Of a DNA stretch of 64,000 nucleotides, positions 6,501 through 57,492 are shown piece after piece (the stretch's first letter is position 1; every line of letters begins with the position of its first letter). The stretch comes from Anaerolineales bacterium (GTDB lineage: Bacteria; Chloroflexota; Anaerolineae; Anaerolineales; RBG-16-64-43): contig DATEAT010000052.1 in the NCBI GenBank assembly GCA_035288225.1, positions 1,560 to 65,559 of the forward strand. The letters run 5' to 3'. Position numbers and translations under genes: made by a program. The notes below the pieces were generated by a model, which worked only from the letters and a program-made list of their open reading frames with translations, had not been told where the DNA came from and did not search any database.

Positions 6501-6821
6501 GCGGGCGGTGTCGATATCCGCCTCGATCGCCGCCCAGCGCGCGCGCTCCGTGCCCGAGCGTGCATCGCGCACCCATGCGTTCACGCGAGTGCGGATGCGA
6601 TTGCGCATCTCGCGCGCGGCCTTCTCGGTGAAGGTCACAGCCACGACGGATCGTGGCGCGAGGCCCTCCTCGAGCAGCGAGAGGTAGCGCGCGGTGAGCG
6701 TGCGCGTCTTGCCCGAGCCGGCGCCGGCAATGAGCACCACATCGCGGCCGCGCGCCTCGAGCGCGCTGCGCTGCACGGGTGTCAGGTCGAACGTCTCGAG
6801 AATGGATGCGCGCTTCAGCAT
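3510..6821 (-). CDS. addA: ATP-dependent helicase/nuclease subunit A (UvrD/Rep-type helicase with C-terminal PD-(D/E)XK nuclease)
   Basis: Walker A is IAGAGSGKT near the N-terminus, and UvrD-like motifs (TFTEKAA, VDEFQDT) are present. The C-terminal IDMLVED...VVDFKT is nuclease-like. The likely start MLKRASILETF at 6821 lies 4 nt after the addB stop. Confidence 0.85.
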   Translation of the reverse strand: MLKRASILETFDLTPVQRSALEARGRDVVLIAGAGSGKTRTLTARYLSLLEEGLAPRSVVAVTFTEKAAREMRNRIRTRVNAWVRDARSGTERARWAAIEADIDTARIGTIHSLCAEIIRAHPVEAAVDPGFEVLEEGLAAAWKSQAVEDALTWASGEADLVPVLRAFTPMQLRAGLAKLIGFRLESAEAFDGVNLVARWDDALNARVREFAEGSEAVDAIRRLEELETEGRLEADAGPKLNEQVQLLLAEWHAMGEALARSSLTEAVGHLARIREECLNLTVGRKAGQAKPLVRLIRDRYEAQVERWLGRVKDVQALENAEGSLRALVPGLRALFAKAAEFYRRAREQKHALDFDDLEDGAARLLDRDDVRRRWRGEIRAVLVDEFQDTNARQRRIVEALSGSRDEEHGGLFVVGDAKQSIYRFRGADVTVFVEVEQAAAKAGGEVLHLAETFRAHAGLVDVLNGLLAPAMSSALPRRPYQVPYERLEARRSEPRAETRPPFVEMIFAEGGEAEASRRLAAAVLAHRLSELARAGVPWDDMALLFRASTSFPDFERALEDAGIPFVTVAGRGFYDRPEIRDLLNLLRAVANPWDDLAMAGLLRSPAFGLSDAALYQLRRPIAEGEPVSFKHALRGDLSALGETDRPRAERARAALDRLAPRANRISVAELLKDLLDSTRLGAALRAAPSGERLQRNVDKLLQDAHASGIARVEDFLDYIETLKAAGAREGEAPSEAQGAVRLMTVHKAKGLEFPVVVLADASRQAPNDYARIILSRELGVVARPGRRTDEEPVSYRLAKAMEREEEQAEEQRLLYVGATRAQERLIVIGYRGGQRGSSWFSQLVEALPEESASEAGAATEPVLRLPDTGGLIALRTVRDLPSPVRQPASVHPLPREEAALTPLYQVVPEHEFEISDDKLPFLEAARKRRQDIFAAHAREGARLVGNLVHLAIRRGCFQGDVRLGAMLGAAVREAGVLDEAEAGQHIAHVERLLERLRGDPHWAAFERARRYHEVPFSVSKGEGVSSGYIDMLVEDGPQAWQVVDFKTTRIETESELERLMQTDFLPQLARYREAVERQLGGTVQTRVCLLDFQGRLEWRPRP

Positions 6822-6825
6822 GCGC

Positions 6826-9800
6826 TCACGCGGGCTGATAGCGCCAGCAGAACAGGCGCGCCGGGCAGTACGCCGGACACCCGCCCTCGGGCGGCCTCGG
6901 GCGGAAGTCGCCCTCGCGAATGCCGGCAACGTAATTCCCGATGTAATCGCGGACCAGGTCCGCCGCGCCGTTCACGCCGGCGTAGTGCTTGCCCGCCTCC
7001 GAAACGTAGTTGAGTGCCTCCAACTTGAGCGCGCTGGGTCCGGCCTGGCGTATCTTCCAATAAACGCCCTCGGTCAGCCGGCCCAGCTTCAGCATGCCTT
7101 CGGCCGCAAGCCCGTAAACCGTGATCTGCAGCCGGCGCCCCTCTTCAAGATCGCGCATCTCGAGCCGGCTCGACCCGGTCTTGTAGTCGATCACTCGCAG
7201 CTGGCCCAGCGCGTCCACGTCCACACGGTCGATGACCCCGTGCAACAGAATTTCGCCGGCCTCGGTCTCCAGCCGCAGCGGGTCGCCCTCCATCCCGAAC
7301 TGCGCCTCGAGCCGCGCCGGGCGATATCCGGTCGAGTATGCATGCAACGCATGCAGCGTCTGGCGCAGGTCGTCGAGCAGGCCGGCCCGTTCGGCTTCCC
7401 ATAATGGGGAGCGGCGAAAACCAAGCCGCCGCGGCGCGTCGGCGAAAACTCGTTCGGCCACAGGCTCAAGTGACTCGAGGAGCAGCTCAAGGTTGGAAAC
7501 GTCCATAGCGCTTGCATAAACTTGCTCGAGGATCTCGTGCAGCATCGTCCCCAACTGCGCCGGATCGAATCCTATTTCGGGGTCGGCCAGTTCTTCGAGC
7601 GCGAGCGCCTTCTGGATAAAGAAGTGGAATTTGCAGCCGGCGTAGGTCTCGAGCCGGCCAGGGCTGAAGACGTGCCGCGGGCCGTAGGCCTTGCCCAGCA
7701 CCGGCGCGAGGTCCGCCGTTTGCCCATCGAACTCGCCCTGCGCCTCGCGCGCCAGGCGCGCCTGAAGTATGCGGCGGGCATGTTGTGCTTCGCGCCACTC
7801 GCTGCCGAGTTCCGCGTACTCTTCGGGCAGGTCGCCGCGCAGTAGCGCCTGCGCCAGGAGTTCGGAGCGCGAGGCGGCCTCGGAGAGCGGGAGGCGGCCC
7901 TCGCTGCGCACGCGATGCGGCACGACGCGCACCACCTCGCGCAGCGCGTGCCAGTAGGGCGAGGGCTCCCAGGCCTCGCCTTCCGGCGAGAGGTATGGCC
8001 GCGTGAGTAGCAAGAAGCGCTCGGCGCGCGTGACGGCCTCGTAGAAGACGGTTTGCTGATCGCTGCGCAGGCGCGGCTCGAGCCGCAGGCCGCGCTCGAT
8101 CAACTGCCCACGGTCGCTGTCGGTGAGGAACGGGTCCTCACTCAGCCGCCTGGGGAAGATGCCTTCCGCCACGCCGAGCAGGGCCACGGCCGGGAAGGGC
8201 ACGCCGCGCGCCTGGGTCAGGTCCGCCACGTAGATGCGCGAACCGCGCCAAGCCTCATCGCCCTCGGGCTGGTAGGTGGCAGCACCCACCGCCTCGCGCA
8301 ACTCGTCGATGAATTCGCGATAGGCCACACGCGGCGGGTTGGGCAGCGCCTTTTCGCTGAGCACGAGCGCGTCGAGCACCTGCCGCAGCGCCTCCAGCGC
8401 CGCCAGGTCCCGCTCCGAATTCTCGGGCACGGCGCGCACTTGGCGCTCGACGGCAAATCCTTCGGCGTCGTCGAGCCGCTCGAGCGCCCAGCGTGCATGC
8501 TCGGCGAGCGCCGCCTCCGGCGCGGGGCGAAGGCGCTCGGCCAGCCGTTCGAGCGCCGCGGCCAGGCGCCGCACTTGCCCGCCGGATGGGGCGCGCAGCG
8601 GCGTATCTTCGTCATCCGCGGCTGGAGGCGGCGCGGCATCCGCGAGCAATGCCAGCCCCTCCCGCCACTGGTCGAGACCGCGTATGACCTGTGCCGCGCG
8701 GGCGGCTTCCTCGAGCGGCCAGGCGTCGTCGCGCGCCAATCCGCAACTGCCCAGATCGAAGTACGGGCTGGAGACGACGTTCAGCAGCAACCGCCGCGGC
8801 CATTCGAGCAACGGTAGTTGCAGAAGGTTCAGGATCGAGGCGATGGCCGGGTTGTGTTCGAGCACGTCGCCCTGCACGAAGCGCACCGGCAGGTCGAACT
8901 CGCGCGCGGCCTCGCGCAGGTATGCCTGGTACGGGCGCAGGTCGGGCGCGATGATCGCGCATTCGAAGGGCTTAAGATCATCGCGCTGGAGGCGTGCCTT
9001 GATCCAGCGCAGCGCCTCGCGCGCCTCCAGCGCTTGGGTTTGCGCCTCGAGTAGCGTGACCTCCGCCCCGCCATCGACTTGCGGCGCCTCCGCCGAAAAG
9101 AGGTAACGCTCAAGATGCCCAAGCGCCTTCGGCCGTTGGCCGCCCGGCGTGAGCGTCGCGGGCGAGAGATGCAGGCGTTCGGTGAGGGTGCGGTGTGTGC
9201 GCTCGAACCGCCGGTAGGCGGCGCGACTCATATCCGGCTCGCCGCACAGCGTGATGACCAGCACGCCTACCTGCTGGCCGAGCGCGGTGAGCGCCTCGAG
9301 TTGCAGCGGGCTGAAGGAATCGAACCCGTCCACGATCAGGAGGTCAACAGAACGCAGGAGGCCGGCCTGCCGCTGGAGCGCGCGCACCGCCAGCCAGCCG
9401 GCTCCCTCGCGATCAACCCAGCTCAGGGCCTGCAACCGCTCCTGGTAGACGCGGTAGATGTCGGCCATCTCCTTCAGTCGCGGCGCGGCGTGCCCGAGCG
9501 CCGCCTGAAGCTGCTCGGGGGTCAGCATCGCCCGCTTGAATTCGGCGATGTGCTCGGCCATGGCGCGGATGAATCCCGGCGAGCGCCGGATGGGGGCGTA
9601 GTAGGGAAGGATGCCGTCGGCGTGCAGCGCATCGATCGCTGCGCGCACCATGCGCAGAACGACGGCCTCATCGGCGACCGGGATGAACTGGCCGGCGCGG
9701 GCGAGGATCTCATCGTACAGGCCGCTGAATCTGAGGACGGTAGCGCCGAGTGCGCCCCCGGACTGGGCCAGCCGGCGGCGCAAAGAGGTGGCGCTGGTTC

Positions 9801-9921
9801 GCGTGGGCACAACGACCCAGGCCGAGGCGAGCTTTTTCTTGGCCAGAAGCGATTGCACACGCTCAATGCAGGCGCGGGTTTTGCCCGAGGCGGCGGGGCC
9901 GAGCAGGTACTCGACGGACAT
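6826..9921 (-). CDS. addB: helicase-nuclease subunit B (AddB-type, C-terminal nuclease with Fe-S cysteines)
   Basis: N-terminal Walker A is GPAASGKT. The C-terminus has RVIDYKTG (PD-(D/E)XK) and cysteines AGCKF ... GGCPAYCPARLFCW (C..C-X3-C-X5-C), like the AddB iron-staple. It lies immediately upstream of addA. Confidence 0.8.
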   Translation of the reverse strand: MSVEYLLGPAASGKTRACIERVQSLLAKKKLASAWVVVPTRTSATSLRRRLAQSGGALGATVLRFSGLYDEILARAGQFIPVADEAVVLRMVRAAIDALHADGILPYYAPIRRSPGFIRAMAEHIAEFKRAMLTPEQLQAALGHAAPRLKEMADIYRVYQERLQALSWVDREGAGWLAVRALQRQAGLLRSVDLLIVDGFDSFSPLQLEALTALGQQVGVLVITLCGEPDMSRAAYRRFERTHRTLTERLHLSPATLTPGGQRPKALGHLERYLFSAEAPQVDGGAEVTLLEAQTQALEAREALRWIKARLQRDDLKPFECAIIAPDLRPYQAYLREAAREFDLPVRFVQGDVLEHNPAIASILNLLQLPLLEWPRRLLLNVVSSPYFDLGSCGLARDDAWPLEEAARAAQVIRGLDQWREGLALLADAAPPPAADDEDTPLRAPSGGQVRRLAAALERLAERLRPAPEAALAEHARWALERLDDAEGFAVERQVRAVPENSERDLAALEALRQVLDALVLSEKALPNPPRVAYREFIDELREAVGAATYQPEGDEAWRGSRIYVADLTQARGVPFPAVALLGVAEGIFPRRLSEDPFLTDSDRGQLIERGLRLEPRLRSDQQTVFYEAVTRAERFLLLTRPYLSPEGEAWEPSPYWHALREVVRVVPHRVRSEGRLPLSEAASRSELLAQALLRGDLPEEYAELGSEWREAQHARRILQARLAREAQGEFDGQTADLAPVLGKAYGPRHVFSPGRLETYAGCKFHFFIQKALALEELADPEIGFDPAQLGTMLHEILEQVYASAMDVSNLELLLESLEPVAERVFADAPRRLGFRRSPLWEAERAGLLDDLRQTLHALHAYSTGYRPARLEAQFGMEGDPLRLETEAGEILLHGVIDRVDVDALGQLRVIDYKTGSSRLEMRDLEEGRRLQITVYGLAAEGMLKLGRLTEGVYWKIRQAGPSALKLEALNYVSEAGKHYAGVNGAADLVRDYIGNYVAGIREGDFRPRPPEGGCPAYCPARLFCWRYQPA

Positions 9922-10046
9922 CGAGGGTTAGTGTAGCACAGGCACTTGCGCGCCTGTCGCGCCGCGGGGCCCGCGAGCCAACGCAGCCACCCGGGCAGCA
10001 TGTAACGCACGCGGGACTCGTGCGCATAGCATTCGCGCGCGGTCAA

Positions 10047-10068
10047 GCGTAAGGCGTGCTATGCCCTC
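10047..10068 (+). repeat. intergenic repeat module C ('MLCPL' module), copy 1
   Basis: The sequence gcgtaaggcgtgctatgccctc recurs with 0-3 changes at 23269, 44899, 61060 and 62818. It generates four spurious track ORFs that begin with MLCPL. Confidence 0.8.
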
Positions 10069-10103
10069 TTCCAGATTGGCGGTCGAGGACGACTTGCCGC
10101 GGG

Positions 10104-11009
10104 CTACACGCCCTGCAGCGTCCGGCGCCGTTCGCGCCTTGCCAGACGCTCCTCGCGCGCACCGTCGCCGGCCGGCCGCTGCGCCGCGAGCCACGACGCG
10201 CAGTTCTCGTCGTGGGCCATCATCACATCCGCTGCAAGGATCAACTTGCGCAAGTCCTCCTCCAGCGGATTAGTGATGGCACAGGTCATGCCCGCGCCGA
10301 TGGCCATGGTGAGAAAGGCGCCGTTCAGCATAACCCGGTCCGGCAGGCCGAACGAGATGTTGGATGCCCCACACACGGTGTTGACCCCAAGTTCCTCGCG
10401 CAGGCGGCGCACTAAGGCAAACAGCGAGACGCCGGCGGAAGCAACCGCGCCAATGGGCATGGCCAGCGGGTCGATGAGCACATCCTCGCGCGGGATGCCG
10501 AACGCTTCCGCGCGCGCGACGATCTTCTGTGCCACGGCGAAACGCACGTGTATGTCTTCCGAGATGCCGCCCTCGTCGTTGGCCACGCCGATCACCGCCG
10601 CACCGTGTTTCTTCACCAGCGGCAGCACCGCCTCCAGGCGCTCGCTCTCGCCGGTCACCGAATTGACCAGCGGTTTGCCGCGATAGGCCGCCAACCCAGC
10701 TTCCAACGCTTTGACAACCGATGAGTCGATGGACAGCGGTACGTCGACGGCCTCCTGGATGACGCGGATGGCCTCGGCCAGGATCGCCGGTTCATCGGCC
10801 AGCGGAATGCCCGCGTTGACATCCAGCACCTGCGCCCCGGCTTGCACCTGGGCAATCGCCTCCGCGCGCACGCGCGAGAAATCGCCAGCCGCCATTTCCG
10901 CCGCCAGCCGCGCGCGGTTGGTCGGGTTGATCCGTTCACCGATGATGACGAAGGGCCGCGCAGGGCCAATGCGCACTTCGCGCGCCGGCGAACGAAGAAT
11001 GGTCTCCAT
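10104..11009 (-). CDS. methyl-tetrahydrofolate:corrinoid methyltransferase (pterin-binding, MetH module-2 / AcsE / MtgA-like)
   Basis: The 301-aa protein has IGERINPT, LDVNAG, NSV and GASNISFGLP motifs of the pterin-binding (DHPS-like) barrel. Its ATG overlaps the metF stop (TGATG). Confidence 0.8.
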   Translation of the reverse strand: METILRSPAREVRIGPARPFVIIGERINPTNRARLAAEMAAGDFSRVRAEAIAQVQAGAQVLDVNAGIPLADEPAILAEAIRVIQEAVDVPLSIDSSVVKALEAGLAAYRGKPLVNSVTGESERLEAVLPLVKKHGAAVIGVANDEGGISEDIHVRFAVAQKIVARAEAFGIPREDVLIDPLAMPIGAVASAGVSLFALVRRLREELGVNTVCGASNISFGLPDRVMLNGAFLTMAIGAGMTCAITNPLEEDLRKLILAADVMMAHDENCASWLAAQRPAGDGAREERLARRERRRTLQGV

Positions 11010-11977
11010 CAGGGCACTTTTTCCTCAACTCGCCTCGCCGCCTCGGGCTCCGCCCGTCGCGGGAGCAGGCCGGCCTCTTCGATGATTTCCGCCACCAGCT
11101 CCTCCTGGCGATAGGCCATCACATGCACTCCATGGATGCCGGGCATCTCGCGCAGTTCGCGAATGATCTCGATGCACAGACGTTTGCCCTCCTCGCGCTG
11201 GCGGTCGGCCGGCACGCCGCGCAGTCGGAGCACCGCCTCATCCGGCACCACCACTCCCGGCACGTGGCTGCGCATCCACTCGGCAGCCTTGGCCGAGCGC
11301 AGCGGGCCCACGCCGGCCAGAATATGGACGCGGCGGTCGAGCCCCAAATCGCACACTTCGCGCATGAACTGGCGCATGCGCGCCAGGTCAAAAACATACT
11401 GGGTTTGAATGAAATCGGCCCCGGCTTCTACTTTCTTAGCCAGGTGCTGCGCGCGAAACTCCACCGGCGGCACAAACGGGTTGGCAGCCGCCCCCATGAA
11501 GATGCGCGGCGGCACCTCGAGCGACCGCCCGCTGAGGAAGCGCCCCTTGTCGCGCATCAGGCGCGCCATACGCAGCGCAGCGATCGAATCCAGATCGAAC
11601 ACCGGCTTAGCCTGCGGCTGATCACCAGCCTGGACACCATCGCCGGTGAGGAACAGCACGTTGCGCACGCCCATGGCGGCCGCTCCCAGCAGATCCCCCT
11701 GGATGGCGATGCGATTGCGGTCGCGGCAGCTTACCTGCAGCACGGCCTCGTAGCCGGCCCGTGTGAGCAATGCGCACACGCCAACGCTCGACATGTGGAC
11801 GTTGGCGCCCGAGGCATCGGTGGCATTGATCGCATCGCACACCGAGGCCAGCACCAACGCGCGGTCGTAAACCGCCTGGGCATCGGCGCTGTCGGGCGGG
11901 TTCAGCTCGGCCGTCACCGCGAATCGCCCCGAGTGCAACACGCGCTCGAGCCGGGAGCCGCTCTTCATTCGTTCCAT
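11009..11977 (-). CDS. metF: 5,10-methylenetetrahydrofolate reductase (MetF, MetVF type)
   Basis: The MTHFR-like sequence starts at MERMKSGSRLERVLHSGRFAVTAELNPP (start 11977 inside the longer track ORF 11009..12247). It overlaps the end of the MetV-like gene by 13 nt. Confidence 0.8.
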   Translation of the reverse strand: MERMKSGSRLERVLHSGRFAVTAELNPPDSADAQAVYDRALVLASVCDAINATDASGANVHMSSVGVCALLTRAGYEAVLQVSCRDRNRIAIQGDLLGAAAMGVRNVLFLTGDGVQAGDQPQAKPVFDLDSIAALRMARLMRDKGRFLSGRSLEVPPRIFMGAAANPFVPPVEFRAQHLAKKVEAGADFIQTQYVFDLARMRQFMREVCDLGLDRRVHILAGVGPLRSAKAAEWMRSHVPGVVVPDEAVLRLRGVPADRQREEGKRLCIEIIRELREMPGIHGVHVMAYRQEELVAEIIEEAGLLPRRAEPEAARRVEEKVP

Positions 11978-12420
11978 CCCTGGGGGACCGAATCCGGCAG
12001 GCCGAGCAGATCGTTCAACCAAGCCGAGCGATCCTGCTGCCGGCGATCGAGCGGCGGCAGGATGAGGCGGATTTCGCCGCCGTACTTGGGCATGCGCGCC
12101 GCGCGCTGCCAGGCCTCTGTCCAAATGCACGGCTGGTCGGGAAGGACTTCGCAGCGGCCGTCGGGGCGCACTCCGCCGCACGGCCCGTTGCGCATGTTCT
12201 TGGGGCAGGTCATCGGGCAGGTCATGCCGGTGTTGTGCAACACACACTCACCGCACATGCGGCAATCGAAGACGGCGCCTTTGCCCACCTGCTCGGCAAC
12301 GACCAGAAGCTTCTCGGTCGCCCCGCCGCGGCGCAGCCAGCGCCGCCATGGACGCAGCAAGCGCGTGGTTGCGTCGTAGGCCGTCTCGAGCAGCGCTGGA
12401 TAGTTTTGCAGGAACGACAT
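11965..12420 (-). CDS. methylene-THF reductase C-terminal-domain protein (MetV-like Cys-rich subunit)
   Basis: CRMCGECVLHNTGMTCPMTCPKNMRNGPCGGVRPDGRCEV...PCIW is the characteristic cysteine pattern of MetV / MTHFR_C proteins that partner MetF in anaerobes. Confidence 0.75.
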   Translation of the reverse strand: MSFLQNYPALLETAYDATTRLLRPWRRWLRRGGATEKLLVVAEQVGKGAVFDCRMCGECVLHNTGMTCPMTCPKNMRNGPCGGVRPDGRCEVLPDQPCIWTEAWQRAARMPKYGGEIRLILPPLDRRQQDRSAWLNDLLGLPDSVPQGWNE

Positions 12421-12458
12421 GCGCTCTACCTTTTCCCCTGCCGGTCGTGCAGCGAAGA

Positions 12459-12764
12459 CTATCCGGCCTCTAACCCGCGCTGAGCCACCAAGGCCTGCAG
12501 CCGCGCCTCGGGGTACGCGGCCTCGATCTCCGCCACGAGTTCCGCGGCCACCGATTCAGGTTCCCCTTCGCGGGTCTCGGGGTCGGACGTGCGCCACTCG
12601 GTGAGGTATTCGTCGCTGCCGCTCTTTCCGGCGCGCATCGCCGCCTCGTCGATCGCGTGCTGAAAGCGCTCGGCGAGCGGACGCGATATGCGCGTGCGCC
12701 CGGCGCGCACCCTCACCTGCGCCGGGATTTCGCGCCACGAAACGATTTGTATGACGACGCTCAT
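12459..12764 (-). CDS. 'virulence factor' domain protein (small accessory protein of corrinoid methyltransferase clusters)
   Basis: MSVVIQIVSWREIPAQVRVRAGRTRISRPLAERFQHAIDEAAMRAGKSGSDEYLTEWR matches the pattern of the Virulence_fact family. The start at 12764 overlaps the DUF1638 stop (ATGA-type coupling). Confidence 0.65.
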   Translation of the reverse strand: MSVVIQIVSWREIPAQVRVRAGRTRISRPLAERFQHAIDEAAMRAGKSGSDEYLTEWRTSDPETREGEPESVAAELVAEIEAAYPEARLQALVAQRGLEAG

Positions 12765-13351
12765 GCTTTCATCATCTCCACCAGCCGTGATTCGAGCGCA
12801 CCGTAGCCCACCTGCACCACTTCCAGCGGCAGCCCCAGGGCGCGCGCAGCCCATTCTGCCTTGGCCACCAGCTCCGGCTTGTCCTCCTGCGCCAGATACA
12901 CCACCTTGGTGTAATTGGCGAAGTAGTCCTCGCGCAGCTCCGGGTGGCGAGCGAGACCCAATCGTTCGACCACCAGGTGATCGAACGAGCGCGCCAGGTA
13001 GTCGGTGAGGAAGAACGTGCCCGGCTCGCGGTCCATCATCGTCTGGAACTGTCCATTGGCATACATCTCGTAACAGTGAGGCCCCGCCACACGTTCAACG
13101 CCTTCGGCGGCGAGCAGCGCATCCAGGCGGCCGCCCGTGCCGCAATCGCCGTAAACCACGATGACCCGCTCGAAGTCGGCACGCGCTTCGCGGATGCGCC
13201 GCGCCACGGCCTGCGGGATGCGGTCGGGTGTGTTGTGCAACAAGGACGGCACGGCCAGCACTTCCGCCCGCCAGCCATGTTTGGCGTTGAGGGCCAGCAC
13301 TTCGCGCGCCAATGCGCCACACGCAATCAGGGCAGTTCGCAACTCGACCAC
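12761..13351 (-). CDS. DUF1638-domain protein
   Basis: GTG start at 13351 (VVELRTALIACGALAREV...). LLHNTPDRIP...VIVVYGDCGTGG is the typical DUF1638 pattern. The upstream part of track ORF 12761..13651 overlaps the preceding gene and is rejected. Confidence 0.65.
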   Translation of the reverse strand: MVELRTALIACGALAREVLALNAKHGWRAEVLAVPSLLHNTPDRIPQAVARRIREARADFERVIVVYGDCGTGGRLDALLAAEGVERVAGPHCYEMYANGQFQTMMDREPGTFFLTDYLARSFDHLVVERLGLARHPELREDYFANYTKVVYLAQEDKPELVAKAEWAARALGLPLEVVQVGYGALESRLVEMMKA

Positions 13352-13356
13352 TCCCT

Positions 13357-14244
13357 TTAGAGCAGGCCTTTGGCTGCGAGCGCATTGCGCATGGCTCGCA
13401 AATGGTCTGGTGTGCTTCCGCAGCACGCGCCGATCACGCGCGCGCCGGCCTCGGCGGCCGCGATGGCGTAGCGCGCCATGTCGTCCGGGCCGGCGCCGTA
13501 TACCGGACGCCCGGCGAGGAGGTGCGGCACGCCGGCGTTGGCTTTGGCCACGAGCGTGGCGGCGGGCGCCATCGCCCGCATCTTGGCCACGACCTCGAGA
13601 ATCTCCTCCGGCCCATTGCCGCAGTTGCCCCCCACCGCCACGGCCCCCCATCCGCTCAGGGTCTGCGCCGCGCGCTCGGGCGTCACGCCCATCATCGTCC
13701 GCCCGCGCGTGTCGAACGTCATCGTGGTGATGATCGGGATATCCGCCGACGCGCGTCGCACTCCGTCGAAAGCCGCCCGCATCTCTTCCAGGCTCGACAT
13801 CGTCTCGAGCCAGATCACGTCGACCCCGCCCTCGACCAGCGCCGCCGCCTGCTCGGCGAACCCGGCCACGGCTGCCTCAGGCTCCAATTCGCCGAGAGGC
13901 GCCAGGATGCCGCCGCTGGGGCCAATGTCGCCTGCCACCAGGGCGGCGCCTCCCGCGGCTTCGCGCGCCAAGCGCGCGGCAGCGCGGTTCAGTTCGGCGG
14001 CACGCTCCTGCAAGTTGTGGAGCTGCAGGCGGAAGCGGTTCCCGCCGAATGTGTTGGTCAGGAGGATGCGCGCACCCGCTTGGACGTAAGCCGCGTGAAT
14101 CTCTCCCACGCGATGCGGCTCGTCGACGTTCCATAGTTCAGGGGAATTGCCGAACGCCAGTCCGTTGGCCATCAACATCGTGCCCATCGCACCATCGGCG
14201 AGAATCACCCCTGGCTGCGCTAGCAACTCACTCCAGGTTGTCAT
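13357..14244 (-). CDS. homocysteine S-methyltransferase domain protein (stand-alone MetH module-1-like)
   Basis: ILADGAMGT, LTNTFGGN, GGNCGNGP and IGACCGSTPDHL are present. The zinc-ligand pattern C...CC of the Hcy-binding barrel is intact. AAGGAGG lies 6 nt upstream of the ATG. Confidence 0.8.
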   Translation of the reverse strand: MTTWSELLAQPGVILADGAMGTMLMANGLAFGNSPELWNVDEPHRVGEIHAAYVQAGARILLTNTFGGNRFRLQLHNLQERAAELNRAAARLAREAAGGAALVAGDIGPSGGILAPLGELEPEAAVAGFAEQAAALVEGGVDVIWLETMSSLEEMRAAFDGVRRASADIPIITTMTFDTRGRTMMGVTPERAAQTLSGWGAVAVGGNCGNGPEEILEVVAKMRAMAPAATLVAKANAGVPHLLAGRPVYGAGPDDMARYAIAAAEAGARVIGACCGSTPDHLRAMRNALAAKGLL

Positions 14245-14384
14245 TCGGCCTCCTTGTTAGCGTCGTTGTTTGGCCCGATGTCAATCTCACCGATCGAGGT
14301 GGGTAGCGGAGGCCTATGGTCGGCCCGCCCAAGCACCTGGCCGCCGTCCCGCCTCGTCCGCGCACTCCTGCCGCTGCGGCCACG

Positions 14385-15068
14385 CTAGCCCCCGCGCTTG
14401 AGCGCGACCAGTTTCTTGGCCGTTTCGACCGCGATGGCCGCATCGCGACAGTAGGCGTCGGCCTCGATCTCCTCGGCAAAGGCGGCGTTGAGCGGCGCGC
14501 CCCCGACCAAGACGATCAGGTCGTCGCGCAAACCGGCTTCCTTGAGAGCCTTGATCACCACCCCCATGTAGGGCATGGTCGTGGTCAGCAGCGCGCTCAT
14601 GCCGAAGAGAGTGGGCTTGTGCTCCTTCACCGCGCCGATGAACTTCTCCGCGTCCACGTTGATGCCCAGGTTCACCACCTTGAACCCGGCCCCCTCCATC
14701 ATCATCGCCACCAGGTTCTTGCCGATGTCGTGAATGTCGCCCTTCACCGTCCCGATGACGAGCGTGCCGATCTGCGGCGCACCGGTCTCCACCAGCAACG
14801 GGCGCAGGATTTCCATGCCGGCCTTCATCGACTTGGCGGCCATGAGAACTTCGGGCACGAAGAGCACCCCGTCGCGGAAATCCGCACCTACCACATCCAT
14901 GCCGGCCACGAGCGACCCGGTTAGGACCTCGTAGGGAGTCAGGCCGCGACGTAGCAGTTCCCGCACCGCGGCCGCAACTTCAGCCGCCAGTCCATCATAC
15001 AGGTCGTCCTTGATCTGCAGGACGATCTCCTCAGTCGGCAGCTTGGTCAGATCCAGTTCCTCGCTCAT
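14385..15068 (-). CDS. cobalamin-binding corrinoid protein (B12 cap + Rossmann domains, MtgC/MtbC-like)
   Basis: GTVKGDIHDIGKNLV carries the DxHxxG base-off/His-on motif. The 227-aa length is typical. The start overlaps the activase stop (ATGA). Confidence 0.85.
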   Translation of the reverse strand: MSEELDLTKLPTEEIVLQIKDDLYDGLAAEVAAAVRELLRRGLTPYEVLTGSLVAGMDVVGADFRDGVLFVPEVLMAAKSMKAGMEILRPLLVETGAPQIGTLVIGTVKGDIHDIGKNLVAMMMEGAGFKVVNLGINVDAEKFIGAVKEHKPTLFGMSALLTTTMPYMGVVIKALKEAGLRDDLIVLVGGAPLNAAFAEEIEADAYCRDAAIAVETAKKLVALKRGG

Positions 15069-17167
15069 TCCGCAATCTCCAGGTGGGATGGGTTAGTGTG
15101 GCTTTGCCGCGGCCGCGCCCGTGCGGCGGTTCGCGGGGCAGGAAGCTCGCCCTGCAAATGAGGGAAGGCGTCGCTTGCGTGCGGCATGGCGAGTGCCGCG
15201 ACGAACTGATCTTGAAAGGTGGGCTCGGTGGCCGTCTGCACGTGCTCCACCCAGCTCGCCAGCCGCTCCGCCTCCACTCGCTGCTCGCGGTCCAGCAGGG
15301 CAATGCGCGCTCCGTCGCCCGCCGAATTGCCCACGGCCTGAACGCGCTCCAACTCGCAGTCTGGGATCATGCCCAGGATCATCGCATGGCGCGGGCTGAT
15401 GTAACTGCCAAAGGCCCCGGCCAGCGCGATACGATCGACGTGTGCGACACCCTGATGTTCCATGAGCAGCCGCACGCCGGCATACAGCGCCGCCTTGGCC
15501 AATTGAATCGCGCGGACGTCGCTTTGGGTGACCACGATCGGCGCGCCGGTAGCGGTTTGCGCGGCGTCCGCGAGCACGTAGCGCCCGGTGCGGCCTTCGA
15601 ATTGCACGCGCGGCGAACGCTCGGCGGCCTGTTCGTCGAAGCGGCCGTCGGAGGTGATAATGCCGGCCAGGAACATTTCCGCCACGGCCTCGATGATGCC
15701 GCTGCCGCAGATGCCGGTAGCGCGCGCCTGGCCAGGCACTTCGTCCGCGGCCTGCGGCTCCACCCAGGCCTCATGGCCGATGACCTTGAAGCGCGGCTCG
15801 AGCGTGGCGCGGTCGATGCGCACGCGCTCGATGGCGCCCGGCGCAGCGCGCTGGCCATGGGTGATTTGCGCACCCTCGAATGCCGGCCCGGTCGGGCTTG
15901 AGGCGCACATCATTCGCGTGCGGTTGCCGAGCGAGATCTCGGCGTTGGTCCCCACGTCGATGAGCAGCATCGCTTCATCTTGCTTGTGCGGCGCCTCGGC
16001 CAAAAGGGCCGCCACGTGATCGGCTCCCACATGCCCGGCGATACACGGCAGCACATGCACGCGCGCGCCGCGATGGAACGCCAGCCCCAGGTCGCGCGCC
16101 TTCATGTCGAGCGGTCCGGAGGTAGCCAGCGCGAACGGCGCACCGCCCAGCTCAACCGGGTCGAGGCCGAGCAGCAGGTGATGCATGATGCTGTTGCCCA
16201 CCAGCACGCTGTCGACGATCTCGCCCGCGGTGAAGCCGGCCCGCACGGCGGCCTTCTCGGCCAATTCGTTGATCGCGCGGATGACCGCACGGTGCATACG
16301 CGCCACGCCTTGCGGCTCGCTCATGCCGTACGACACCCGGCTCATCAGGTCTTCGCCGAAGCGCACCTGAGGATTCATCATCGATTCGCTGGCAAGCACG
16401 GCGCCGGTGCGCAAATCGCACAGGTGGGCTGCAATGGTCGTCGATCCTACATCCACCGCCAGGCCGACCAGCCGCTCCACATAACCGGGCTCGATGCGCA
16501 GCACCTCGCGCTCGTCCCACAGGGTGAGGGTCAGCGTGCTTCCGCCGCGGCGCAGCGCCGGTTGCAGGCTGGGCAGCACGGCCGTGTCGAGCACCGGCGA
16601 CGCGATCTGCCATTGTTCACGCAGCGCCTGCTCCACCCTTTGCCAATCCCCGCGATGGTCGCCCAGGCTGGCCGGGGTCACTTCTATATAGATGAGCCGC
16701 ACTGCGGGCTGAATGGTTATCGTGCGCTCGGTGGCCTCTTTGGCGATGACCTGTTTGCGCGCCTGGCTTTCCTCCGGCACGCTGACCAGCACTTCGCCCT
16801 GCACGCGGGCGGCACAGGCCAGCCGTCGGCCGTGTATATCGAATTTGGCCGCGCAGGCGATCTCTTGCGCCTCGGGCGGCGAGAGGTGACGTGCGGCGGA
16901 GGTGAGGCCGTGCTTCTCGTAGCGCCCTTCTTCCACAACGACCTGGCACTTGCCGCAGGTCTGCTTGCCGCCGCAAATCGATTCGAGATCCACCCCCAGT
17001 GAGCGGCAGGCGGTGAGCAGGTCGGTCCCCTCGGCGATGAGCCCGCGCCGCCCAGAAGGCACGAGCACGAGCTGGTGTTCGCGGGTTGAGGTTGGCTTGT
17101 CGGTCACAGTGTCATCCGTCCCATATCGATGGGTATGCGTTGAGGGCCGGGCCTGCCCCTCCCCCAC
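15065..17167 (-). CDS. corrinoid reductive activase (RACo-type: N-terminal 2Fe-2S ferredoxin + ASKHA ATPase domain)
   Basis: The ferredoxin cysteines are CGGKQTCGKCQV...C, followed by a large ASKHA/DUF4445-like body (DVGTNAE, GSGIIEAV). The first start is GTG at 17167. A better-placed GTG at 17107 follows GGACGGA. Confidence 0.8.
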   Translation of the reverse strand: MGEGQARPSTHTHRYGTDDTVTDKPTSTREHQLVLVPSGRRGLIAEGTDLLTACRSLGVDLESICGGKQTCGKCQVVVEEGRYEKHGLTSAARHLSPPEAQEIACAAKFDIHGRRLACAARVQGEVLVSVPEESQARKQVIAKEATERTITIQPAVRLIYIEVTPASLGDHRGDWQRVEQALREQWQIASPVLDTAVLPSLQPALRRGGSTLTLTLWDEREVLRIEPGYVERLVGLAVDVGSTTIAAHLCDLRTGAVLASESMMNPQVRFGEDLMSRVSYGMSEPQGVARMHRAVIRAINELAEKAAVRAGFTAGEIVDSVLVGNSIMHHLLLGLDPVELGGAPFALATSGPLDMKARDLGLAFHRGARVHVLPCIAGHVGADHVAALLAEAPHKQDEAMLLIDVGTNAEISLGNRTRMMCASSPTGPAFEGAQITHGQRAAPGAIERVRIDRATLEPRFKVIGHEAWVEPQAADEVPGQARATGICGSGIIEAVAEMFLAGIITSDGRFDEQAAERSPRVQFEGRTGRYVLADAAQTATGAPIVVTQSDVRAIQLAKAALYAGVRLLMEHQGVAHVDRIALAGAFGSYISPRHAMILGMIPDCELERVQAVGNSAGDGARIALLDREQRVEAERLASWVEHVQTATEPTFQDQFVAALAMPHASDAFPHLQGELPAPRTAARARPRQSHTNPSHLEIAE

Positions 17168-17187
17168 TCACGGCCTCGCGGCATCTG

Positions 17188-18708
17188 TCAGCTGCTCTGG
17201 CCGGCCGCTTCACGTCGCCGCCGTTCAGTGCGCTCACGCCGGGCGGTCGGCGCGGCGCGCGTCCAGCCTTCGGGCGGGCGCGAGTCCCCGGCCACCAGAC
17301 CCGCGAATTTGGCGCGCACGCGCGCCTCGACCTCCGGAGCAAATACCGCCGGGTTGTCGCGGGTCAGGATCTCTTGCACTTTGCGCATCGCGCGCGCCTG
17401 TGAATCCAAGGCGCCGCGCTCGATCCACTGGGCGCGTGCGTCGCGATCCGAAATCTCGGGCAGGAAGGCGGCCGTCTTCATGCGCTCCAATGTGTGCACG
17501 TTGTCCATGAACATGCCCGCCGGCCCCACCTCGCGAATCAGATCGAGCGCCAGGTTGTCCTCGCTGAATTCAAGCCCGCGCTTGGCCCGCTTGGCCATCA
17601 TGAAGATTTCGTCGTCGATGGCCGCCTTGGCATAATCGAATGCCATCAACGCGTCGAGCAACCCGCCGGTATTGAACATATCCACGCCGGCCGCCAGGCC
17701 AAGCGCCAGCGACATGCCGGTCTCGTAGCCAGACTGGGCGTCGTTGAGTTTGGAGTTGGTCAGCCCAATGTAGCCGCCGTTGGGCACATTGTAGAAGCGC
17801 GCCATCTGCGCGTGCCCCACGAAGAGCACGCCGGTCTCGATCGCGCCCGGGGCGTAGGCCCCGCTGCGCATATCGGCCACGGTAGGCAATGTGGCGTAGA
17901 TCGTGGCTTTGCCGGGTCGCACCATTTGCTCGAGAACCGCCGCGGCCAGGAATTCCGCATTGCCCTGGGCCAAAGACCCCAGGAGAGTCAGCGGGGAGGT
18001 GAGCCCGGCGTTAGGAACAATGGTCGGGTAGCACGGCAATCCTTGCTCGGTGTAATAGATGAGCATCTGCGTCGAATCGAAATCCATTGTCAGCGGCGAA
18101 ACCACCGGGCAGTAGTGATGTGTCACGAAAGGATGTGCACGGTAGGCAGCTTCGCTTCCGGCGATGGTGAACGCCAGTTGCAGGATCTTCTCGGTGTCCT
18201 CAGGCGGTCCGCTGCCGCGCACCGGCTTGGCGCAGTTCTTGAGCGCGGCATAGAAGCGGGTAAGGCTGAACATGCCCGCCGGGGCGTCTTCGGCTAGAGT
18301 CGAAATGGAAAAGACGTCGTACCCCGGGAGTTCGTTCACCAGGTGGGCGATGCGCGCCAGGTCTTCCGAGCGCGCGCGTCGTTCCTGCCCGGTCAGCGGG
18401 TCGATAATGTTCGGCGCCGAACTGCCGGTGACCATCACTGGGCTGTCGTCCGGGATCGTCCGGTCGAAGCGCGGATCGCGGCCGCCAAAGGTGAAGGTGG
18501 GCGGGATCGAGGCGCGGAACTCTTCAACCACGGCACGTGGGAAGTGCATGATCTCCGTCCCGGGCTGCGGCCGGCAACCATGCGCAGCAAGAATCTCACG
18601 CGCTTGGGCATTGCGGATGAGCAGCCCCACCTCGTCGAGAATCTCCAGCGAGGCCTCGTGAACGCGTAGCACCTGCTCGCGGCTCAGCAATTCGTAGTGT
18701 TGGGTCAT
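17188..18708 (-). CDS. MttB-superfamily (trimethylamine methyltransferase family) corrinoid-dependent methyltransferase, non-pyrrolysine type
   Basis: The 506-aa protein shows family-wide similarity (LSREQVLRVHEASLEILDEVG..., ...DAQSGYE...). There is no in-frame TAG, so it belongs to the non-Pyl branch that contains quaternary-amine methyltransferases. Confidence 0.85.
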   Translation of the reverse strand: MTQHYELLSREQVLRVHEASLEILDEVGLLIRNAQAREILAAHGCRPQPGTEIMHFPRAVVEEFRASIPPTFTFGGRDPRFDRTIPDDSPVMVTGSSAPNIIDPLTGQERRARSEDLARIAHLVNELPGYDVFSISTLAEDAPAGMFSLTRFYAALKNCAKPVRGSGPPEDTEKILQLAFTIAGSEAAYRAHPFVTHHYCPVVSPLTMDFDSTQMLIYYTEQGLPCYPTIVPNAGLTSPLTLLGSLAQGNAEFLAAAVLEQMVRPGKATIYATLPTVADMRSGAYAPGAIETGVLFVGHAQMARFYNVPNGGYIGLTNSKLNDAQSGYETGMSLALGLAAGVDMFNTGGLLDALMAFDYAKAAIDDEIFMMAKRAKRGLEFSEDNLALDLIREVGPAGMFMDNVHTLERMKTAAFLPEISDRDARAQWIERGALDSQARAMRKVQEILTRDNPAVFAPEVEARVRAKFAGLVAGDSRPPEGWTRAAPTARRERTERRRREAAGQSS

Positions 18709-18759
18709 CGCCTCGTCCCTCTCTCACCGCGCGGAGTGCTCGCCTCCCGCGGCGCAGGT

Positions 18760-19548
18760 CTATAGAGCCAGCGCCGCCGTCTCGGTGACGAATTGAAAAC
18801 GGTCCCCCCGGTAGTGGTCCTCGCCGTGGTCCACCGGCGCGCCCAGAACATCATATGAAAGCCGGCGCTCAAGCATCAGCGGTGCGCTCAACGGCACGAG
18901 CAATTGCTCCGACTCGTACGCGGTGGCCAGCACCGCCTCCAGGCTGAGGCGCGCGCGATGCACATCGACCCCGTAGTGCTCATGCAGCACCTCGTACAAC
19001 GAGTGCTGCTCGAGATCGTATCGCGCCAGGCGCGCAAAGCGCATGATCGGAAGCGTATAGTGCTCGAGCAGCACCGGCTGACCGTTGAGGAATCGCAGCC
19101 GGCGGATGTCGTAGATGGGTGCAAATGCCGGCAGGCGCAGCGCCGCCGCTAGAGCTGCGCCGCACGGCCGCTCCTCAAACGAGACCACCTTCGCTCCCGG
19201 CGTGAAGCCTTGCTCGCGCATGCGTTTGGTGAACGAGACGAGTTGCCCGGCCTGGCGCTCGATCTTGCGGTCGGCGATGTACGTACCGGCACCCTGGCGG
19301 CGCGCGAGCAGCCCCTGCGCCTCGAGCATCTCCAAAGCACGGCGCAACGTCATGCGGTTCACCCCAAGCATCTGGCTCAGATCGCGCTCGGGCGGCAAGC
19401 GATCGCCAGGAGCGAGGCGACCCGAATCGACCCAGGTTAGAAGTCCTTCTGCGATTTGAATGTAGAGAGGCACGCCGGCCACCAGGCGGTTGACCGGTTT
19501 GAGCTGGAGAGGATTGAGCGAGGTGTATTCGGCCTTTGGAGAAGCCAT
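18760..19548 (-). CDS. GntR-family transcriptional regulator, HutC subfamily (wHTH + UTRA)
   Basis: LPPERDLSQMLGVNRMTLRRALEMLEAQGLLARRQGAGTYI is the GntR winged HTH. The C-terminal ~150 aa is UTRA-like. It is the first gene of the operon. Confidence 0.85.
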   Translation of the reverse strand: MASPKAEYTSLNPLQLKPVNRLVAGVPLYIQIAEGLLTWVDSGRLAPGDRLPPERDLSQMLGVNRMTLRRALEMLEAQGLLARRQGAGTYIADRKIERQAGQLVSFTKRMREQGFTPGAKVVSFEERPCGAALAAALRLPAFAPIYDIRRLRFLNGQPVLLEHYTLPIMRFARLARYDLEQHSLYEVLHEHYGVDVHRARLSLEAVLATAYESEQLLVPLSAPLMLERRLSYDVLGAPVDHGEDHYRGDRFQFVTETAALAL

Positions 19549-19576
19549 TTGTGTCTCTTGGAACTAATTGGTCTGG

Positions 19577-19588
19577 TGGTATATACCA
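19577..19588. promoter_or_regulatory. perfect 12-bp palindrome TGGTATATACCA, candidate HutC/GntR operator
   Basis: It matches the HutC-type GT-N-TA-N-AC core. It is embedded in ATTGGTCTGGTGGTATATACCAAT, just downstream of the predicted -10 and 29 nt upstream of the gntR ATG. Confidence 0.55.
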
Positions 19589-19599
19589 ATCTCGGGGAC

Positions 19600-19628
19600 A
19601 GGATAGCATGGGTGGACTTCTGTGTCAA
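19600..19628 (-). promoter_or_regulatory. sigma70-like promoter of the gntR-mttB operon
   Basis: On the minus strand it reads TTGACA - 17 nt - TATCCT. Confidence 0.5.
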
Positions 19629-20078
19629 CTCACTGATCCCGCCCCCTCTCTCGGGCGGCGAGTCGTCGCGTTTCTCCGACGAGCGCGAACTTTGTGTCTT
19701 CGAATCCCGCTGAGCCAGATCGATGGGGCCGCGCTTTTCTCTTCGCCCCTTCGCACTTCGTGCGCATCCACCCTGGTTCTCGCCGGCACGGTTCAACACC
19801 CTGCCGAGGGGCGATCTGCCTCACAGGTTCCCTCTCCGTACGAGTGGTTGAAAGGATTCGAGCGATTCGCACCAGGACGTGGTGGCCTAACCGCGGATGC
19901 GGGCAAAGTGTCCGTAATCGGGTTGCTGATGTGACGGAGGCCGGGGCGCCGACGTTCGAAAGATCGAGGCCGGACCCTCGTACGGAAGGATTCGGGGGGG
20001 CCAATGACCTCGCGGGTGGCTCGGATTGGACCGTTGGGGGTCCCTCGTGCGATGCACGCCCAGAGGCGGCCGCCCGAT

Positions 20079-20122
20079 AACAGAAAGGAGGCCGCAGCCG
20101 AAAAGGTCCGGCTGGAGCCTCC
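20079..20122 (-). terminator. rho-independent terminator after tRNA-Asp
   Basis: On the minus strand, GGAGGC-tc-CAGCCG-gacctttt-CGGCTG-cg-GCCTCC is followed by TTTCTGTT. It starts 9 nt after the tRNA 3' end. Confidence 0.6.
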
Positions 20123-20131
20123 ATTCGTTCG

Positions 20132-20209
20132 TGGCGGGAGCGACGGGATTCGAACCCGCGGTCTCGGCCTTGACAGGGCCGCGTGTTAGGCCAGCTACAC
20201 CACGCCCCC
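20132..20209 (-). tRNA. tRNA-Asp (anticodon GTC), CCA encoded
   Basis: Reverse complement is GGGGGCGTGGTGTAGCTGGCCTAACACGCGGCCCTGTCAAGGCCGAGACCGCGGGTTCGAATCCCGTCGCTCCCGCCA. It has a 7-bp acceptor stem, anticodon loop CTGTCAA and T-loop GGTTCGAATCC. Confidence 0.9.
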
Positions 20210-20220
20210 GAGTGCCGCGC

Positions 20221-20250
20221 ATCATACCATACCCCGCGCTGGGCCGTCAA
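20221..20250 (-). promoter_or_regulatory. promoter of tRNA-Asp
   Basis: On the minus strand it reads TTGACG - 18 nt - (TGG)TATGAT with an extended -10 TG. It ends 11 nt before the mature tRNA 5' end. Confidence 0.55.
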
Positions 20251-20346
20251 TCCAACCTTAGGTACAATCAAGGGGGGCGGCGCAAATTTGCCAGGTGCCG
20301 TCCGCGAGATTCGTTATGATGCCCATGCCAACCGCCCCGTTGCCGC

Positions 20347-55632: not shown

Positions 55633-57492
<1,860 letters not shown>

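Follow-up and report, generated by a model that had tools for sequence, protein, structure and literature searches.

Does a ten-gene block on the minus strand of an uncultured Anaerolineales (Chloroflexota) bacterium constitute a new kind of cobalamin-dependent methyl-transfer system, or does it belong to a design already described in other bacteria? The block (10104-19548), located in a 64,000-nt stretch of contig DATEAT010000052.1 (hereafter, the window), begins with a gene for a transcriptional regulator of the HutC subfamily and includes a gene for a methyltransferase of the MttB superfamily. The locus is a genuine operon. From its gene content, sequence motifs, promoter and putative operator, synteny, and the orthology of eight components to an alphaproteobacterial set, we consider it likely that this is a single HutC-repressed operon encoding a complete modular cobalamin methyl-transfer system of the MtgBCDE type with a dual role. 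The operon is a further example of the MtgBCDE-type design published in 2025 and not a new kind of system. Its new elements are the phylum, the full consolidation into one HutC-controlled operon, and an uncharacterized MttB clade as the methyl donor module.

Gene content and conservation of the operon

The ten co-directional genes, their order and their domains, as given in the original prediction for this DNA, were all reproduced by Pfam profile searches:

18760-19548, minus strand: gntR, regulator of the HutC subfamily (GntR helix-turn-helix and UTRA effector domains), 262 aa (UTRA, 2e-36; GntR, 4.7e-22)
17188-18708, minus strand: MttB-superfamily methyltransferase without pyrrolysine, the donor-specific B module, 506 aa (PF06253, 3.8e-90)
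15065-17107, minus strand: RACo/RamA-type ATP-dependent reductive activase ([2Fe-2S] plus ASKHA), 680 aa (Fer2, RACo_linker, RACo_middle, RACo_C_ter)
14385-15068, minus strand: corrinoid protein (B12 cap plus Rossmann domain), the C module, 227 aa (B12-binding_2 and B12-binding, PF02607 and PF02310)
14245-14384, minus strand: GC-rich spacer of 140 nt at the corrinoid/homocysteine-methyltransferase junction
13357-14244, minus strand: Zn-dependent homocysteine S-methyltransferase module, the E module, 295 aa (S-methyl_trans, PF02574, 6.1e-68)
12761-13342, minus strand: DUF1638 protein, accessory factor of split methionine synthases, 193 aa (PF07796)
12459-12764, minus strand: Virulence_fact protein, 101 aa (PF13769)
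11965-12420, minus strand: MetV (DUF5981/MTHFR_C; methylenetetrahydrofolate reductase C-terminal type, 8 Cys), 151 aa (PF12225)
11009-11968, minus strand: MetF, methylenetetrahydrofolate reductase, 319 aa (MTHFR, PF02219)
10104-11009, minus strand: pterin-binding methyltetrahydrofolate:corrinoid methyltransferase, the D module, 301 aa (Pterin_bind, PF00809)

The same ten genes are called in public contigs that encode an identical MttB protein, with products of 262, 506, 680/700, 227, 295, 193, 101, 151, 319, and 301 aa. An alternative start of the activase gene at 17167 (700 aa) is less likely, its homologs being 663-680 aa long. The DUF1638 gene starts with TTG, and its product (193 aa) is the same as database protein P0241. 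The gene junctions also match the prediction of overlaps, short gaps and a spacer of ~140 nt: three ATGA overlaps (RACo/corrinoid, DUF1638/Virulence_fact, and MetV/MetF) and one TGATG (MetF/pterin methyltransferase) were found, and the intergenic gaps measure 51, 80, 140, 14, and 38 nt. Most genes of the operon have good Shine-Dalgarno sequences.

The closest relatives are metagenome-assembled genomes (MAGs) labeled Anaerolineales, Anaerolineae or Chloroflexota. The ten-gene order is present in near-identical strains (loci L001-L008, L025, and L026) and in five further lineages with MttB proteins 69-76% identical to that of the window (L031/L032, L033, L035, L039, and L040); since it recurs in independent contigs, it is not a chance juxtaposition. 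L031/L032 have exactly the gene order of the window, an EamA transporter gene is inserted after mttB in L033, L035, and L040, and L039 has both EamA and AhpC genes inserted. Orthologs at 57-66% identity, some of them in MAGs of Verrucomicrobiota and Spirochaetota, are found with smaller gene sets; the reduced sets are gntR-mttB-corrinoid-pterin methyltransferase (L014, L015) and mttB-corrinoid-RACo...homocysteine methyltransferase (L020). In the long-read MAG locus L026 (CAVQIA010000004.1; 10360-11307 and 17116-17691), the mttB and metF matches are partial at ~90-95% identity, which suggests frameshifts from assembly errors or pseudogenes.

Catalytic modules and their counterparts in known systems

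The corrinoid, pterin and homocysteine modules are encoded on separate polypeptides, as expected of MtgBCDE-type systems and split methionine synthases. The corrinoid protein carries an intact His-on motif (DIHDIG, of the form DxHxxG; residues 111-116), and the homocysteine module contains exactly three Cys residues (C208, C274, and C275), the Zn ligands. The pterin methyltransferase matches NF005719 with 340.8 bits, over the cutoff of 259, and its best matches in the PDB are MeTr and MetH's folate domain. MetV has eight Cys and is translationally coupled to MetF by the ATGA overlap, as in MetVF-type reductases. Assignment to the Wood-Ljungdahl pathway (AcsE/AcsV) was rejected, since the scores fall far under the NCBIfam cutoffs specific for carbon monoxide dehydrogenase/acetyl-CoA synthase (137 vs. 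370 for the pterin methyltransferase and 401 vs. 800 for the activase).

Systems of this composition have been studied in two marine bacteria. Fitness profiling of Phaeobacter inhibens revealed that methionine is made by a three-part B12-dependent synthase, with PF02574, PF00809, and PF02607/PF02310 on separate proteins; a RamA-like ferredoxin/DUF4445 protein and a DUF1638 protein are also needed, the latter being a genetic requirement for methionine synthesis (Price et al., 2018; PMC5764234). In Ruegeria pomeroyi, one system acts as both glycine betaine demethylase and split methionine synthase: knock-outs demonstrated that the shared corrinoid protein MtgC and the reversible pterin methyltransferase MtgD are required for methionine synthesis and for growth on glycine betaine. 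N-osmolytes induce PF06253 proteins (MtgB), RamA, DUF1638, and a second MetF (MetF2), and MtgE is the protein earlier named Bhmt in Sinorhizobium meliloti (Mausz et al., 2025, PNAS; PMC12478193). The phenotypes of MtgB1 and MtgC, and the dual role, were confirmed in P. inhibens in a 2025 preprint (bioRxiv 10.64898/2025.12.19.695462). The MtgBCDE systems of both bacteria share their parts with the window operon, namely a PF06253 methyltransferase, a stand-alone corrinoid protein, a pterin methyltransferase, a homocysteine module, a RamA/RACo-like activase, DUF1638, and a dedicated MetF. The genes are dispersed in Ruegeria and Phaeobacter, whereas in the window they form one operon headed by a HutC regulator; the hosts differ as well, being Chloroflexota for the window and Pseudomonadota for Ruegeria, Phaeobacter, and Sinorhizobium.

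In S. meliloti, all nine structural genes occur within ~18 kb, on both strands. They are annotated as bmt, "trimethylamine methyltransferase family protein," cobalamin-binding protein, DUF1638, ASKHA protein, virulence factor, MTHFR_C, MTHFR, and methyltetrahydrofolate cobalamin methyltransferase, and the order Virulence_fact-MetV-MetF-pterin methyltransferase is shared with the window. Eight components of the window operon are 47-65% identical to their S. meliloti homologs: the corrinoid protein (65%), MetF (63%), the pterin methyltransferase (56%), the RACo activase (ASKHA protein; 50%), MetV (50%), the PF13769 protein (48%), DUF1638 (47%), and the homocysteine module (bmt; 47%). The B module departs from this pattern, as the window MttB is not orthologous to the S. 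meliloti MttB; thus, the window operon encodes this machinery with another donor module. The novelty claimed for the locus was therefore overrated, the functional inventory being published and co-localized in S. meliloti. An equivalent gene set has been described, whereas the identical ten-gene operon was not found described in the literature. The PLSDB record CP090106.1 (L036; 3.72 Mb), labeled "Sinorhizobium meliloti plasmid pSymB," carries bmt and the cluster and looks like a mislabeled chromosome.

Other known systems share smaller portions of the design. Desulfitobacterium hafniense MtgB, MtgC, and MtgA (2QNE, 9YCE; PMC13080624) form the same relay from the B module through the corrinoid protein to the pterin methyltransferase, with a RamA-type activase; this system lacks the homocysteine module, DUF1638, PF13769, and MetVF, all of which are present in the window. 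Eubacterium limosum MtpB, MtcB, MtyB, and MthB are likewise members of the MttB superfamily without pyrrolysine and feed a shared corrinoid protein and tetrahydrofolate (THF) methyltransferase. Classical MetH comprises the same four chemistry modules (homocysteine-binding, pterin-binding, B12 cap, and B12 domain; partial matches to TIGR02082). It is, however, a single chain with a reactivation domain dependent on S-adenosylmethionine, whereas the window encodes separate polypeptides with RACo and DUF1638 (plus PF13769) instead, and carries an extra methyl-donor module. Since the homocysteine module, corrinoid protein, pterin methyltransferase, RACo, and DUF1638 together constitute a split methionine synthase, the pterin methyltransferase probably runs in both directions. 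Homocysteine and THF had been proposed as alternative methyl acceptors; both routes are supported, but the modules are more than alternative acceptors, as they form a split methionine synthase of the kind first established by genetics in P. inhibens (PMC5764234).

The methyl-donor module

As expected for the donor of an MtgBCDE-type system, the B module is a PF06253 methyltransferase without pyrrolysine. Its gene is an uninterrupted open reading frame (ORF) with no in-frame TAG, as predicted, and Leu aligns with the pyrrolysine position (X of 7XCL) of Methanosarcina MttB; D. hafniense MtgB also has Leu at this position. Assignment as a trimethylamine MttB of the pyrrolysine type was rejected, with no in-frame stop and 330 bits to TIGR02369 against a cutoff of 525. 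The best match in the PDB is D. hafniense MtgB (228 bits), compared with 158 for pyrrolysine MttB and 145 bits for S. meliloti 4YYC. Identity amounts to 33% with D. hafniense MtgB and 26-27% with the co-localized MttB of S. meliloti.

Mutagenesis and a ligand-bound structure have defined the glycine betaine site of MtgB, with Y97 and F356 providing cation-pi contacts and the pair R312/H348 gripping the carboxylate; R312 is reported to be shared by MtcB, MtpB, MthB, and MtyB as well (Picking et al., 2026; PMC13080624). In the window MttB, Y97, R312, H348, and F356 are replaced by S, G, N, and L, respectively, in two alignments, and these replacements are invariant across 119/119 members of the clade (at least 67% identity). 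The protein is not an MtgB in the strict sense, as all four glycine-betaine-binding residues are replaced, and its substrate is therefore not assignable by homology. A further gain of the pocket is an Asp where MtgB has Q354, and the GGYIGL loop contains a Tyr. By contrast, the co-localized MttB of S. meliloti is 45% identical to MtgB and retains Y97, R312, and H348, which marks it as a true MtgB-type enzyme.

The distribution of these signatures was examined in a search of 50%-identity cluster representatives, in which 130 of the best 150 matches listed were full-length (at least 440 aa). Among these 130 proteins, the S/G/N/L signature occurs only in the clade itself and in its nearest sister clusters, down to ~40% identity, and Y-R-H-aromatic signatures characterize a separate group. 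The Arg reported to be conserved in MtpB, MtcB, MtyB, and MthB is a Gly here, a comparison made with the published description and not by a tree. On the basis of these residues, the MttB module probably belongs to an uncharacterized clade outside the known substrate clades. The clade is abundant: clustered at 90% identity, its members at 67% identity or higher form more than 100 clusters.

Promoter-like site, putative operator and regulator

Two sites upstream of the operon are consistent with its transcription from a single repressed promoter:

19600-19628, minus strand: sigma-70-like promoter site, TTGACA, 17-nt spacer, and TG-extended TATCCT (10/12 matches)
19567-19590: putative HutC/GntR operator, a perfect 12-bp palindrome TGGTATATACCA (19577-19588) within the inverted repeat ATTGGT...ACCAAT

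The right end of the locus in the original prediction, 19628, is the first base of the promoter-like site, which is retained in close relatives (L007, L008, L023, and L026). The palindrome TGGTATATACCA is situated past the -10 box, at a distance of 12-23 nt downstream, and ahead of the gntR start codon. A single exact copy is present in the window, with a chance expectation of 0.15 at two or fewer mismatches. The only other near-match in the window that could hint at a larger regulon, at 56970, has two mismatches and is located inside the BipA gene.

Comparison of relatives reveals one TGGTnTAnACCA site per locus, ~40 nt upstream of gntR, in L001-L010, L014, L015, L023, L026, L033-L035, L039, and L040, and a degenerate form in L031/L032. 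The position is preserved even where the GntR proteins are only 58-61% identical (L009, L014, L015, L033, L035, L039, and L040). In the relatives, the motif was found only upstream of gntR and never ahead of neighboring transporter genes. This arrangement of classic HutC-type half-sites in a repressor position is that of a putative operator. The regulator itself combines a PF00392 winged helix-turn-helix domain with a PF07702 UTRA domain and has a putative GT-n-TA-n-AC palindrome near its own promoter, as is characteristic of HutC regulators; its best NCBIfam matches are PhnF, PhnR, and HutC, all below cutoff.

No convincing internal promoter was found within the operon by a promoter scan and spacer alignment, nor any convincing intrinsic terminator within the operon or past the pterin methyltransferase gene; the 182-nt gap before addB is just GC-rich and structured. 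Control by a riboswitch or other RNA element was rejected, since Rfam gave only a tRNA-Asp (gathering thresholds for the whole window, permissive mode for 9900-20300) and no cobalamin or SAM riboswitch. The 140-nt spacer has a strong predicted fold (-53.5 kcal/mol) and no Rfam match. A conserved element in it was likewise rejected, as alignment with relatives revealed conservation only among near-identical strains. In L040, the same junction holds an unrelated 155-nt spacer with a direct repeat.

Corrinoid reactivation and accessory proteins

Both the RACo activase and DUF1638 are present, as expected for corrinoid reactivation in an MtgBCDE-type system, and the plant-type [2Fe-2S] motif of the activase (CX5CX2C...C) is intact. 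In an alignment of 36 homologs, DUF1638 has invariant C8, C67, H89, and C90 and conserved YGDCGTGG and GPHCYEMY motifs; the invariant residues suggest a metal or cofactor site. The AlphaFold models of the PF13769 protein and DUF1638 are confident, with predicted local distance difference test (pLDDT) scores of 93.8 and 88.7, respectively, and that of DUF1638 is a generic alpha/beta fold. Structure and sequence searches of the PDB identified no informative counterpart of either protein, the fold matches of DUF1638 being weak.

Other gene contexts are more informative for PF13769. On the Terrarubrum flagellatum plasmid NZ_CP091854.1 (L037, 10589-12871), the domain is fused N-terminally to a complete RACo in a 760-aa protein (Virulence_fact-Fer2-RACo_linker-RACo_middle-RACo_C_ter). 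In Candidatus Leptofilum sp. (L041, 515-10309 of a 2.68-Mb contig), two tandem PF13769 genes stand beside RACo and a corrinoid protein, in a cluster that also encodes Pterin_bind, creatininase, URO-D-type methyltransferase, and Pyr_redox_2 proteins and lacks a homocysteine module and MetF. The RACo fusion and the Leptofilum cluster tie PF13769 to corrinoid activation rather than to the methylenetetrahydrofolate reductase, and the protein is probably a partner of the corrinoid activase.

Proposed mechanism and alternative interpretations

We infer every catalytic step, and the dual role, from homologs. The MttB-family enzyme (B) would move one methyl group from a methylated amine onto the Co(I) form of the corrinoid protein (C). 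The resulting methyl-Co(III) could be discharged by D, which would transfer the methyl group to THF, with MetVF oxidizing methyl-THF to methylene-THF for one-carbon (C1) metabolism, or by the Zn-dependent homocysteine module (E), which would make methionine. As D is expected to be reversible, MetVF, D, C, and E may operate as a split methionine synthase when the methylated amine is absent. The RACo-type activase, together with DUF1638 and the PF13769 protein, would restore Co(I) after oxidative inactivation, and the HutC regulator is predicted to bind the palindrome just downstream of the -10 box until released by its ligand. The original proposal that a HutC-controlled module might feed both methionine and the folate C1 pool gains support from the domains, the promoter and putative operator, synteny, and the Ruegeria and Phaeobacter precedent.

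Several points weigh against this mechanism. The MttB is only 33% identical to MtgB and lacks all four glycine-betaine residues, including the widely conserved Arg; and no transporter or downstream demethylase gene is located among the annotated neighbors in the window. Control by a repressor of catabolic type sits awkwardly with a housekeeping methionine synthase if the genome encodes neither MetH nor MetE; neither of these, nor any further mttB gene, is found among the annotated neighbors in the 64-kb window. The missing transporter and demethylase genes would also suit an operon whose role is in essence anabolic, a split methionine synthase equipped with a methylenetetrahydrofolate reductase and reactivation factors of its own, in which MttB is an auxiliary methyl donor for methionine or a recent passenger and no significant catabolic C1 flux occurs. 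We consider this improbable, because gntR-mttB forms the operon head in every relative, the distant orthologs in L014 and L015 keep gntR, mttB, and the corrinoid and pterin genes without the homocysteine module, and catabolic genes resembling dimethylglycine dehydrogenase (DMGDH) adjoin the operon in relatives.

A division into two transcription units, in which gntR-mttB-RACo-corrinoid would be inducible and the genes from the homocysteine methyltransferase through DUF1638, the Virulence_fact gene, metV, and metF to the pterin methyltransferase would be constitutive and driven from the 140-nt spacer, is suggested by a TTGACA hexamer in the spacer ~40 nt upstream of the homocysteine methyltransferase gene, by the 155-nt gap at the same junction in L040, and by Ruegeria, where MtgE is constitutive and MtgBCD are induced (PMC12478193). 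It nevertheless has little probability, given that the promoter scan gave no acceptable -10 element in the spacer, that the spacer is unconserved (70 nt in L007 and 2-3 nt or an overlap in L031, L033, L035, and L039), and that the second half needs the corrinoid protein and activase encoded in the first. It is highly improbable that the S-methyl_trans protein acts directly as a betaine-homocysteine methyltransferase (BHMT), making methionine from glycine betaine with no part played by the corrinoid protein. The best NCBIfam match of the homocysteine module is indeed NF005718 ("betaine--homocysteine S-methyltransferase"), with a score of 337.8 bits (cutoff 338), and its S. meliloti homolog is annotated bmt; in the reading of Mausz et al., however, this family, which includes S. 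meliloti bmt and P. inhibens PGA1_c13370, corresponds to MtgE, the homocysteine module of the split synthase, and the glycine-betaine-binding residues are reported to be kept only in Bhmt of the SAR11 type (PMC12478193). In P. inhibens, the gene shows cofitness with those for the corrinoid and pterin proteins (PMC5764234). The dual-role MtgBCDE-type operon thus remains the preferred interpretation.

Candidate substrates

The original caution that neither the substrate of MttB nor the effector of the regulator can be read from the sequence holds. The neighborhoods of orthologs provide some clues, of a kind that is absent from the window itself. A DAO-FAO_M-GCV_T protein of ~810 aa, with the architecture of dimethylglycine/sarcosine dehydrogenases, adjoins the operon or the mttB ortholog in at least 10 loci. 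In L021, the mttB ortholog is flanked by genes for a GbcA-like Rieske oxygenase (407 bits, cutoff 670) and a DAO oxidoreductase with electron transfer flavoprotein (ETF) beta and alpha subunits. These DMGDH-like and GbcA-like neighbors favor glycine betaine or a close relative. Our best guess is glycine betaine or a related betaine or choline derivative, though the pocket is unlike that of MtgB; that the substrate is glycine betaine itself has somewhat less than an even chance.

Other neighbors have a different flavor. Kinase genes stand beside the orthologs in L031 (choline-kinase/APH) and in L013 and L024 (PfkB), which recalls the pairing of MthK and MthB in E. limosum, where MthB is specific for phosphocholine and works with the kinase MthK. 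In L035 (1-4663), L039 (2715-8583), and L040 (2573-8499), gntR is immediately preceded on its own strand by a conserved block encoding a PotD/PhnS-like ABC transporter, a YitT-family membrane protein, and a PF01663 phosphodiesterase; none of its genes is present in the window. The best NCBIfam matches of this block and of the EamA insert, all sub-threshold, share a phosphonate theme (PhnS, PhnT2, and phn_DUF6), that of the EamA insert being a "phosphonate utilization associated" membrane protein. The kinase and phosphonate-type neighbors may leave room for a phosphorylated or phosphonate substrate. Candidates for a novel substrate are methylated amines without the carboxylate that Arg and His hold in MtgB-type enzymes, such as choline, or phosphorylated or phosphonate analogs, as hinted by the kinase, PF01663, and PhnS/PhnT2/phn_DUF6-like neighbors in relatives. 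It is conceivable, though on the whole unlikely, that the S/G/N/L clade demethylates a substrate new to the MttB superfamily (e.g., carboxylate-free choline, or a phosphorylated or phosphonate analog) and that the operon is the sole methionine synthase in these Anaerolineales.

Flanking genes

The remaining genes of the window are of a housekeeping nature (AddAB, DnaE, BipA, PFK, EF-P, PlsX/FabF, ETF, and two tRNAs). Downstream of the operon, on the same strand and after the 182-nt gap, lies AddB (6826-9921, minus strand; PDDEXK_1 and a C-terminal Cys cluster), followed by an ORF of 1139 aa (3510-6929) that is presumably AddA; both are apparently unrelated to the operon. On the other side, tRNA-Asp(GTC) (20132-20209, minus strand) has its own promoter-like site (20221-20250), and the ~500 nt between it and the operon promoter (19629-20131) contain no convincing gene or Rfam match. 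An ORF of 213 aa (19630-20271) overlaps the tRNA-Asp gene and is probably spurious.

Implications

The operon extends the link between methylated-amine demethylation and methionine synthesis, known only from marine and rhizobial Pseudomonadota, to the Chloroflexota, a phylum abundant in soils, sediments, and groundwater. Comparative evidence also suggests a place for PF13769, misleadingly named "virulence factor," in the machinery that reactivates the corrinoid. With every component in one compact operon, the system is convenient for heterologous reconstitution, and the remodeled pocket of an abundant MttB clade is a defined target for substrate discovery. If the clade does act on a substrate new to the superfamily and the operon is the sole methionine synthase, the methionine supply of these bacteria would be transcriptionally tied to the availability of that amine.

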